Of a stretch of 64,000 bases of DNA, positions 5,778 to 10,214 are shown one piece after another; within the stretch, counting starts at the first letter, position 1; every line of letters begins with the position of its first letter. Below the pieces are notes generated by a model, which worked only from the letters and a program-made list of their open reading frames with translations, was not told where the DNA came from and did no database searches. The position numbers and the translations under genes were made by a program. The stretch is from Escherichia coli (GTDB lineage Bacteria > Pseudomonadota > Gammaproteobacteria > Enterobacterales > Enterobacteriaceae). The DNA is taken from the NCBI GenBank assembly GCA_025544715.1, contig GCA_025544715.1_4109.2; one strand, 5' to 3'.

Positions 5778-6457
<680 letters not shown>

Positions 6458-6463
6458 AACTTA

Positions 6464-7003
6464 TTAACGTTCATCATCATGAATCTCACGATGACAATTA
6501 GCACAAACCATAATACATTTATCTAGTTCTATTTTGATTTTTTCAAAAGAACGAGTTGAACCTTCTTGACTAATTGAAAAATCTTTCTGTGAAGGGTCAA
6601 TATGGTGAAATTCTAATGCCGCAATGCATTTATTATAACCACACTTTTCGCAGCAACCACCTTTGTATTCAACAGCTAATATTTTTAATTTTCTACGTCT
6701 ATCCGAAACACGTTGACTGTCACATTTTGAGCATTTCCATTTACCTTGTGAATTTAAATCATAATTCTTATTGTGTATTTCACAAAATCTCATTTCATTC
6801 GTTGACTTTGGTCGTTTAACACCATGTGATTCAATAATGTTATTGATTCTTGATCTATTACACTTATATTCTTTGGCTAAACCGTAAATTGGCATACCAT
6901 TTAAATACTTCTGAATTATTTCATTCTCTGGTAATTTAGAACTTTTCGCCTTTATTGCTTCGGCTATTTTGTTGCGTGTTTCTTCTGATTGTTTTCGTCC
7001 CAT
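6464..7003 (-). mobile_element. HNH homing endonuclease
   Basis: N-terminal EETRNKIAEAIK (NUMOD3-like), helix-turn-helix-like segment, Cys pairs, C-terminal EFHHID...CANCHREIH HNH motif; sits next to a tRNA cluster. Confidence 0.7.
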
Positions 7004-7069
7004 GAACCTTAGACCTCATAATATCCATTATGATATTATTTATTGTTCCAAGGTTCATAGTTAATTTGC

Positions 7070-7152
7070 TGGTAGTACTGGAGTCGAACCAGTCTTGTCA
7101 TTTCTGACACGGATTAACAGTCCGTTGCATAAGGCCGATATGCTAACTACCA
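7070..7152 (-). tRNA. type II tRNA (long variable arm), anticodon read as GTT
   Basis: 7-bp acceptor TGGTAGT/ACTACCA, D-stem GCAT/ATGC, anticodon stem ACGGA/TCCGT with loop CTGTTAA, variable hairpin GTCAGAAATGAC, T-arm ACTGG-TTCGACT-CCAGT; tRNA-Tyr-like body with an Asn anticodon. Confidence 0.55.
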
Positions 7153-7164
7153 TTTGTTTTAAAT

Positions 7165-7244
<80 letters not shown>

Positions 7245-7247
7245 GTA

Positions 7248-7741
<494 letters not shown>

Positions 7742-8103: not shown

Positions 8104-8128
8104 ATTATATCAGTACTGAACTATTTAG

Positions 8129-8132
<4 letters not shown>
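8104..8132 (-). promoter_or_regulatory. early-type sigma70 promoter (TTGACT-17-TATAAT)
   Basis: Same architecture and spacer as 7345-7373 (TTGACTaaatagttcagtactgaTATAAT). Confidence 0.6.
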
Positions 8133-8541
<409 letters not shown>

Positions 8542-8554
8542 GCTTTTTTTTTAA

Positions 8555-8715
<161 letters not shown>

Positions 8716-8719
<4 letters not shown>

Positions 8720-8876
8720 ATTCGTACCAGTAGTTCAATTAAGTACATTTCATATGCTGGATCGTTGATAAGTTTATCATACAGATGTGGCTCTGAAATG
8801 AATTCCCAATGATACTCTAACCACTTACCAAAACCTGCATATCTAAAATTAATGTCATTCATCCATTCTTCATGTG

Positions 8877-8880
<4 letters not shown>
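8716..8880 (-). CDS. MTHEEW-family small protein (54 aa)
   Basis: Hand-translated MTHEEWMNDINFRYAGFGKW...; ATGA stop/start overlap on both sides. Confidence 0.55.
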
Positions 8881-9140
<260 letters not shown>

Positions 9141-9512: not shown

Positions 9513-9695
9513 TTAGTTTTGATTATTTGATTTTCTAAATGCCAGTTCGCATATAAACCAAGGTTTTCTGGTATCCAAAACATATGACCTGAAAAGATTT
9601 TCATCTCTTAAGATATCATAATGTACCTGACGAATGCCATTTCCAAAGCAATCATGTTCTTTATGCTGTTTGGACATCCATTCTTCGTGTGTCAT
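9513..9695 (-). CDS. MTHEEW-family small protein (60 aa)
   Basis: Track ORF 9513-9713 contains MTHEEWMSKQHKEHDCFGNGIRQVHYD; start moved to the conserved MTHEEW ATG at 9695. Confidence 0.5.
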   Translation of the reverse strand: MTHEEWMSKQHKEHDCFGNGIRQVHYDILRDENLFRSYVLDTRKPWFICELAFRKSNNQN

Positions 9696-10037: not shown

Positions 10038-10214
10038 CTATTTTTTGTCTCTAATTGCAAGCTCATAGATGAACCAGTGGTTGCTATCCCCATCCAATAC
10101 AAATGATTTGAAAAGTTGTTTATCTTTTAACACATCATAATGACCTTGGCGTATACCAAAACCAAAAGGATTATGTTTGAATTTTAGTTCATCTAACCAT
10201 TCTTCATGTGTCAT
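10038..10214 (-). CDS. MTHEEW-family small protein (~58 aa)
   Basis: Hand-translated MTHEEWLDELKFKHNPFGFGIRQGHYDVLKD...; same conserved 5' nucleotide block. Confidence 0.45.
   Translation of the reverse strand: MTHEEWLDELKFKHNPFGFGIRQGHYDVLKDKQLFKSFVLDGDSNHWFIYELAIRDKK

Follow-up and report, generated by a model that had tools for sequence, protein, structure and literature searches.

A predicted HNH homing-endonuclease gene linked to tRNA-Asn in the tRNA island of a RaK2-like jumbo coliphage

What role might an HNH nuclease gene play directly behind a run of phage tRNA genes, and what could account for its presence there in some phages and not in others? The question is raised by an ORF in a 64,000-nucleotide stretch of DNA from an Escherichia coli assembly (the window), whose features are collected in Table 1. 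A 4-kb query around this ORF against phage records indicates that the window derives from a RaK2-like jumbo coliphage (Asteriusvirus), with the best match in WPEC5 (92% over the full length) and further matches in the group that includes 121Q, PBECO4, and G17. The ORF starts 64 nt past the end of a tRNA-Asn gene, and a trio of genes for tRNA-Ser, tRNA-Met, and tRNA-Asn (Rfam tRNA scores of 47.5 to 58.9 bits) lies directly upstream on the same strand; the ORF is a single copy, with no second copy or paralogue in the window. A prior sequence-only reading had placed it immediately downstream of three tRNA genes, in what it termed the classic position of free-standing homing endonucleases in T4-like tRNA regions. 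The position is indeed as described, but the region belongs to a RaK2-like Asteriusvirus rather than to a T4-like phage. On the other side, the gene listed at 6188-6457 on the minus strand probably begins at 6445 (MAYFLIQ..., which gives the 258-nt length seen in 121Q and G17) and not at the ATG of the ORF list at 6457; 18 nt separate the HNH stop codon from the start codon at 6445. We propose that the ORF is likely to be a functional free-standing HNH homing-endonuclease gene, lodged in what is, in relatives without it, a spacer of 20 to 28 nt between tRNA-Asn and the next gene.

Table 1. Features of the HNH locus, in window coordinates
Feature	Position	Strand	Remarks
HNH endonuclease ORF	6464..7003	-	179 aa, ATG start; coordinates include the stop codon
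NUMOD3-like N-terminal motif, aa 2-18	6950..7000	-	sub-threshold in Pfam; matched by 9/24 relatives
Three-helix HTH-like DNA-binding region, aa 26-59	6827..6928	-	predicted; model helices 26-34, 39-45, 50-59
Zinc ribbon, invariant C74, H77, C91, C94	6722..6784	-	from the alignment
HNH (His-Me finger) core	6476..6661	-	C118/C121/C167/C170 zinc site, H133-H134, N169, H171, H175
RNA hairpin	7000..7060	-	predicted; pairs the start codon and the bases immediately preceding it; GAGG Shine-Dalgarno in internal loop
tRNA-Asn(GUU), 85 nt, 15-nt variable arm	7068..7152	-	appears to travel with the HNH gene
tRNA-Met(CAU)	7166..7244	-	allele unlike that of 121Q and G17
tRNA-Ser(GCU)	7249..7338	-	121Q and G17 have Ser(ACU) in its place
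Sigma-70-like promoter (TTGACT, 17 nt, TATAAT preceded by TG)	7345..7373	-	11/12 consensus positions plus TG
Segment common to the window and Klebsiella phage Muenster (HNH, spacer, tRNA-Asn)	6470..7162		78.5% identity
Hypervariable slot between conserved flanking genes (homologues of 121Q genes 134 and 130)	6446..7345

The motifs EFHHID (aa 131-136) and CANCHREIH (aa 167-175) of the encoded protein had suggested a C-terminal HNH domain, and its start had been taken as NUMOD-like. Profile searches bear out both assignments, with differing strength: PHROG 2255 ("HNH endonuclease") is matched strongly over most of the protein (E = 3.1e-33, aa 31-177), but the protein's own Pfam scores fall under the cut-offs for HNH (PF01844; 15.7 bits against 21.4; E = 0.018) as well as for NUMOD3 (PF07460; 18.2 bits against 20.4; E = 0.0024, aa 2-18). 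HTH_23 is matched at E = 0.041, and a search of NCBIfam returned nothing useful. Among 24 close relatives, 14 match Pfam HNH at E <= 0.01 (best 7.4e-6), 9 match NUMOD3, and several match HTH_7 or HTH_23; 3637 homologues are found at E <= 1e-5 in a large protein collection. Alignment of 24 full-length relatives shows that the four cysteines of the HNH zinc site (C118, C121, C167, C170), the residues H133, H134, N169, H171, and H175, and a further CxxH..CxxC ribbon (C74, H77, C91, C94) are all invariant. An additional N-terminal zinc ribbon, present in relatives of about 184 to 223 aa, is missing from the window protein.

Searches of PDB sequences with the single protein and with the family profile gave marginal matches only, to McrA, the LtrA endonuclease domain, and a resolvase HTH; the alignments to McrA and LtrA, marginal as they are, display the layout CxxC..HH..CxxCH..H. 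In the marginal McrA alignment, Asp161-Lys162, both invariant in the family, fall at the Asp-Asn of McrA that supplies the middle Asn of H-N-H. In the AlphaFold model (pLDDT 84.8), four N-terminal helices are followed by a long helix (92-113) and then by a beta-beta-alpha unit (130-178) whose core is formed by strands 130-134 and 163-167 and helix 168-178. With this model, Foldseek recovers 39 matches at E <= 1e-3 among the viral structures of BFVD, nearly all of those listed being named HNH endonucleases, and only weak matches in the PDB (Cap5, Cas9 HNH, and Gme HNH nickase; E about 0.1-0.2). We conclude that the product is an active-looking HNH nuclease with predicted DNA-binding modules.

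The distribution of the gene is what might be expected of an element that comes and goes. Full-length copies at the nucleotide level are confined to 5 of 50,697 phage records: WPEC5 (93% nucleotide identity over the gene), Muenster and phiKp_21 (76% each), and RCIP0023 and KP13-7, whose copies match partially in nucleotides and are 64-65% identical in amino acids. At the protein level, the homologues of WPEC5, Muenster, and fHe-Yen9-04 are 94%, 76%, and 45% identical, respectively. The comparison of this locus that had been suggested on the basis of the sequence alone shows a presence/absence polymorphism, in place of universal presence: WPEC5 has the gene, and 121Q, G17, WPEC3, and JP4 lack it at the same spot, where tRNA-Asn adjoins the next gene. 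The spacer between tRNA-Asn and the gene-134 homologue is 28 nt in 121Q and 20 nt in G17, and the HNH gene is inserted downstream of the tRNA-Asn 3' end and ahead of the ribosome-binding site of the gene-134 homologue, both neighbors being intact. Where present, the gene is maintained; its ORF is intact in 7 of 7 close relatives, and dN/dS is 0.08-0.23 against six relatives, or 0.08-0.18 when only the five with informative divergence are taken (WPEC5, Muenster, RCIP0023, and the loci L093 and L095). These last values argue that the protein is under purifying selection.

The neighborhood of the gene is sharply mosaic. Identity to 121Q and G17 is 98-100% at 6400-6439, collapses across 6440-7359, and is at least 92% again from 7360; such a collapse between conserved flanks indicates that the tRNA trio and the HNH gene together form a replaceable slot. 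In transcription order, the slot of the window reads Ser(GCU), Met, Asn (an 85-nt allele that we call type A), HNH; that of 121Q and G17 reads Ser(ACU), Met, Asn (75 or 73 nt); and that of WPEC3 and JP4 reads Ser(GCU), a different HNH gene of the NUMOD4 type, Ser(ACU), Met, Asn. In the equivalent island of RaK2 and K64-1, a third, I-HmuI-like HNH gene lies between tRNA-Met and tRNA-Asn. The tRNA island is thus a hot spot for several endonuclease families in sister phages, the NUMOD4-type gene lying between two tRNA-Ser genes (L006 2334-2858 in WPEC3; L007 2110-2634 in JP4) and the I-HmuI-like gene at L180 1690-2397 (RaK2) and L181 1734-2441 (K64-1). Smaller differences are also seen: WPEC5 has about 150 bases more than the window between tRNA-Met and tRNA-Ser (L001 2744-2897), a tRNA-Ser with the anticodon ACT occurs in 121Q (L002 2632-2723), G17, WPEC3, and JP4, and the tRNA-Met(CAU) of G17 (L003 1781-1870) is 90 nt long with a long variable arm.

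Signs of movement come from comparisons with the Klebsiella phage Muenster, which belongs to another genus, Alcyoneusvirus. The segment that the window has in common with Muenster comprises exactly the HNH gene, the spacer, tRNA-Asn, and 10 nt, and its flanks are unrelated. Muenster and RCIP0023 are 98-100% identical on both flanks, but with the exception of one 40-nt bin their identity is only 45-80% over tRNA-Asn, the spacer, and the greater part of the HNH gene. Judging from these alignments, tRNA-Asn and the HNH gene are evidently exchanged among Klebsiella phages as one patch between flanks of 98-100% identity. The tRNA-Asn of RCIP0023 is of the 121Q type, and the type-A allele is found only beside this HNH gene. 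The tRNA alleles differ exactly around the HNH gene, a sequence signature that fits co-conversion of flanking markers, and these patterns clearly point to short-range co-transfer of tRNA-Asn with the HNH gene. The suggestion of the sequence-only reading that the nuclease may explain the local mosaicism is supported for the tRNA set; it had been extended to the duplicated promoter cassettes, and there it fails.

An identical 29-nt sigma-70-like promoter (TTGACTAAATAGTTCAGTACTGATATAAT) occurs on the minus strand at 7345-7373 and at 8104-8132, with a weaker copy within 8508-8550. The same duplication is present in 121Q, G17, WPEC3, and JP4, all of which are without this HNH gene, so that its insertion is ruled out as the cause. 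WPEC5 shows the 29-nt promoter only once across the region examined. Farther along, at 8555-9041 on the minus strand, are three tandem overlapping paralogous ORFs of 165 nt (54 aa each) starting with MTHEEW; two more genes, with related starts at 9642-9695 and 10161-10214, have the same N-terminal coding motif.

The promoter copy just upstream of tRNA-Ser probably drives the tRNA genes and the HNH gene together; we infer this co-transcription because the promoter is near consensus and a search of the coding strand from there to the HNH gene found no terminator-like site. Translation might be subject to a separate control. The 64-nt spacer is predicted to fold into a two-tier hairpin (-26.4 kcal/mol, z = -7.5; 0 of 200 shuffled sequences fold as well), in which the AUG and the bases preceding it pair with the upstream CAUGAACC segment. 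The same shape is obtained when the sequences of WPEC5, Muenster, RCIP0023, L093, and L095 are folded independently (-21.6 to -24.0 kcal/mol), with compensatory changes in the outer stem in Muenster and a different inner stem in RCIP0023. Preservation of the hairpin with compensatory changes implies regulated expression, and masking of the start site is a known restraint on homing-endonuclease genes of T4 (established knowledge cited in PMC2330249). We also considered whether the conserved ATAAATA in the hairpin could serve as a T4-type late promoter and rejected this candidate: TATAAATA shows no enrichment, with 3 occurrences in the window where 11.4 would be expected. A second candidate, an internal sigma-70-like match (TTAACT, 18 nt, AATAAT), is weak (9/12), and, given both findings, a transcript start inside the hairpin stays speculative.

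Is the proximity to tRNA-Asn a peculiarity of this locus? A scan of IMG/VR with the family alignment yielded 80 loci, which collapse into 68 clusters at 90% protein identity. Of these non-redundant viral loci, 63 have tRNA genes within 3 kb, 54 have one within 150 bp of the HNH ORF, and 32 have a tRNA-Asn within 150 bp, upstream in 15 cases and downstream in 18. Asn accounts for 33 of 77 flanking tRNAs (43%), against 8.8% of all 580 tRNAs in the loci (binomial p = 2e-15), with tRNA-Arg being the second commonest neighbor. In many short members, the ORF runs into the tRNA-Asn gene, such that its stop codon is formed by tRNA positions 8-10 (TAG). Adjacency to tRNA-Asn is repeated in the GenBank phages fHe-Yen9-04, XbC2, and 4_4572 and in metagenomic close relatives; the homologue in PAK_P4 lies between tRNA-Arg and tRNA-Lys. 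As a control, we used 80 homologues from bacterial and archaeal assemblies, which match the HNH core only; any tRNA is found within 3 kb in just 10 of these loci and adjacent in 6. The cellular genes (L099-L178) are mostly away from tRNAs and come mainly from Omnitrophota, CPR, and Acidobacteriota, and in most of these loci the HNH core of the window protein (aa 99-175) is 60-73% identical to a match within an ORF of about 100-140 aa, a degree of conservation between cells and phages that is very high for a nuclease. The new observation here is this family-wide linkage of the viral homologues to tRNA-Asn, together with cellular homologues that have no such link; a search of open-access text found no paper on a tRNA-Asn bias of this HNH family.

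The linkage could reflect a passenger or a landing site. Across the family, how similar two HNH cores are bears no relation to how similar their adjacent tRNA-Asn genes are (Spearman r = -0.03, Mantel p = 0.70), which argues that tRNA-Asn is not a fixed long-term passenger, and members upstream and downstream of tRNA-Asn, which are about equally frequent, do not form separate clades of the HNH core. By these comparisons, the data favor tRNA-Asn as a landing site over a permanent passenger. Part of the association with arrays in general could nevertheless be tolerance rather than targeting, because tRNA arrays are dispensable and serve many endonuclease families as hot spots.

The tRNA-Asn allele of the window is itself distinctive. 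It has a 15-nt variable arm with a stem-loop, a 10-nt expansion; such an arm is probably unusual for tRNA-Asn. In a direct alignment with E. coli asnT, the anticodon arm is identical and the T arm differs by one base, and BLAST of the window tRNA-Asn against E. coli genomes, at that database size, gave no match. Besides this allele, twelve distinct long-arm tRNA(GUU) genes of 82-91 nt, mostly with discriminator G, were observed in unrelated phage tRNA arrays (L012, L032, L047, L051, L055, L058, L061, L064, L067, L079, L086, and L091), and no paper on such genes was found. The RCIP0023 allele, otherwise of the 121Q type, reads CTCAAAC in the variable loop against CTTAGAC in 121Q. Both carrier alleles, type A and that of RCIP0023, therefore differ from the empty 121Q allele in the variable loop, in what amounts to two comparisons only.

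Taking these findings together, we propose the following cycle, all steps of which beyond a polymorphic, tRNA-Asn-linked HNH nuclease gene we infer. A single transcript from the early sigma-70-like promoter would cover tRNA-Ser, tRNA-Met, tRNA-Asn, and the HNH gene; tRNA processing would free the HNH mRNA, whose hairpin might hold translation low. In a mixed infection, the NUMOD3, HTH, and zinc-ribbon parts would bind the DNA of a co-infecting HNH-less relative, and the HNH core would nick or cut it, presumably in or beside the recipient's tRNA-Asn gene. Recombinational repair would then copy the HNH gene, and often the donor tRNA-Asn and neighboring tRNA alleles as well, into the recipient. 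A broader version, tentative and on balance doubtful, is that the viral branch of the family comprises homing endonucleases that recognize tRNA-Asn genes and act as a main driver of array mosaicism, with changes in the variable loop protecting the carrier. If this were true, the target would be conserved across unrelated phages and even the host, which would allow the family to shuttle itself, and at times tRNA alleles, between phage genera; the 10-nt expansion and the CTCAAAC/CTTAGAC difference would shield the carrier's own copy from cutting; and there would be convergence on the same isotype with SegB, an unrelated GIY-YIG enzyme.

Other roles for the nuclease have to be weighed against homing. 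One is that it has been domesticated to the benefit of the phage, by excluding rivals, by degrading host DNA at tRNA-Asn, or by promoting the amplification or exchange of tRNA genes against host defenses that target tRNAs, as reported for SegB. The strong purifying selection (dN/dS of 0.08-0.18), the HNH core that is 60-73% identical even to cellular proteins, the tight linkage to tRNA-Asn across very different phages, and the restriction of type-A tRNA-Asn to carriers of the gene could all be read in this manner, and SegB has been reported to amplify tRNA-Tyr to escape Septu (PMC13096335). However, most close relatives lack the gene, which argues against an important benefit, and the single copy in the window gives no sign of amplification. 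We hence regard domestication as unlikely, though it is compatible with homing and would add to it. Another notion is that of an inactive homing-endonuclease relic that is passively carried. The sub-threshold Pfam scores, the absence of the N-terminal zinc ribbon seen in relatives of about 184-223 aa, and a strong hairpin over the start codon would suit such a relic, but the intact ORF in 7 of 7 close relatives with the same low dN/dS, the invariance of all catalytic and zinc ligands, and the conservation of the hairpin through compensatory changes do not; on grounds of selection we reject it as very improbable.

Two other possibilities concern the substrate and the context of the gene. The isotype-specific adjacency in both gene orders raises the prospect of an RNA-acting pair, in which the HNH protein cuts the tRNA-Asn of the host or a rival and the linked phage tRNA-Asn, with its expanded variable arm, is a resistant replacement; in keeping with this, the anticodon and T arms of the long-arm tRNA-Asn still resemble those of E. 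coli asnT, and long-arm tRNA(GUU) genes recur in these loci. Against it, the NUMOD3 and HTH modules, like the McrA/Cas9-type HNH core, are DNA directed, the tRNA-Asn genes beside HNH genes are mostly of normal length and show no clear enrichment of long arms (about 9 of 34, against 3 of 18 for those not adjacent), and no known HNH anticodon nuclease was found, leaving this pairing with only a slim chance of being correct. Finally, the HNH protein might assist terminase in packaging, like HK97 gp74; small phage HNH proteins of similar size exist, and some of the BFVD matches are such proteins. The present gene, by contrast, lies in a tRNA island with an early promoter, away from terminase and portal genes, is absent from most relatives, and encodes DNA-binding modules typical of homing endonucleases; we therefore reject a packaging role on gene context and give it hardly any credence.

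Homing remains our preferred explanation, although the sub-threshold Pfam scores for HNH and NUMOD3 speak against it, as does Lys162, which apparently takes the place of the canonical middle Asn (Asn169 being invariant). The gene itself is an ordinary selfish element, and its 94%-identical copy in WPEC5 is already annotated as an HNH endonuclease. Of modest interest beyond this are the tRNA-Asn linkage, the swapped patch of tRNA-Asn and HNH gene, and the conserved start-site hairpin. The family pattern, in which the viral HNH genes occur almost only in phage tRNA arrays and lie against tRNA-Asn in nearly half of the loci, yields a concrete guess at the target site and suggests how tRNA sets might be reshuffled between phages, which matters because phage tRNAs counter tRNA-cutting host defenses.

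Among known systems, the closest relatives of the window protein are the PHROG 2255 members of WPEC5, Muenster, and fHe-Yen9-04, which are direct homologues, all beside tRNA-Asn, and carry names from annotation only. More distant likenesses are found in McrA (6ghc), the Gme HNH nickase (4h9d), Cas9 HNH, and Cap5, which have the same CxxC..HH..CxxCH..H core and beta-beta-alpha-metal fold; these matches are weak (sequence E about 0.05-0.1), and the other domains and roles differ. I-HmuI and other NUMOD-bearing HNH_3 enzymes are likewise homing endonucleases of modular build, in which NUMOD or HTH parts bind DNA, and the HNH genes of RaK2 and K64-1 share the tRNA island, that of RaK2 at the equivalent locus. 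They nonetheless belong to another His-Me subgroup, with an N-terminal nuclease and no CxxC zinc site, and BLASTP similarity between the window protein and the RaK2-type HNH is limited to the HTH region (E = 0.05). [quoted passage not shown]

The most telling parallel is SegB of T4, a characterized homing endonuclease of a tRNA cluster that is unrelated to the family described here and also prefers a tRNA-Asn gene. Its 27-bp site lies inside the tRNA-Asn gene of T2L and includes the T-arm motif, and its homing replaces about 1250 bp of tRNA genes (PMC2330249). Like the present gene, segB encodes a free-standing endonuclease and lies within a cluster of phage tRNA genes. Its ORF abuts tRNA-Arg, and processing of the tRNA severs the last sense codon from the stop codon (PMC2330249); the short members of the HNH family, with a stop codon borne by tRNA-Asn, are comparably tight. 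The two nevertheless differ in fold, GIY-YIG in SegB and HNH here, with no sequence homology, and SegB homologues, which co-localize with tRNAs across phages, reportedly do so without isotype preference (PMC13096335), in contrast to the tRNA-Asn bias of the HNH family. By this analogy, the best reading of the gene is as a probable functional counterpart of T4 SegB, anchored at tRNA-Asn genes.
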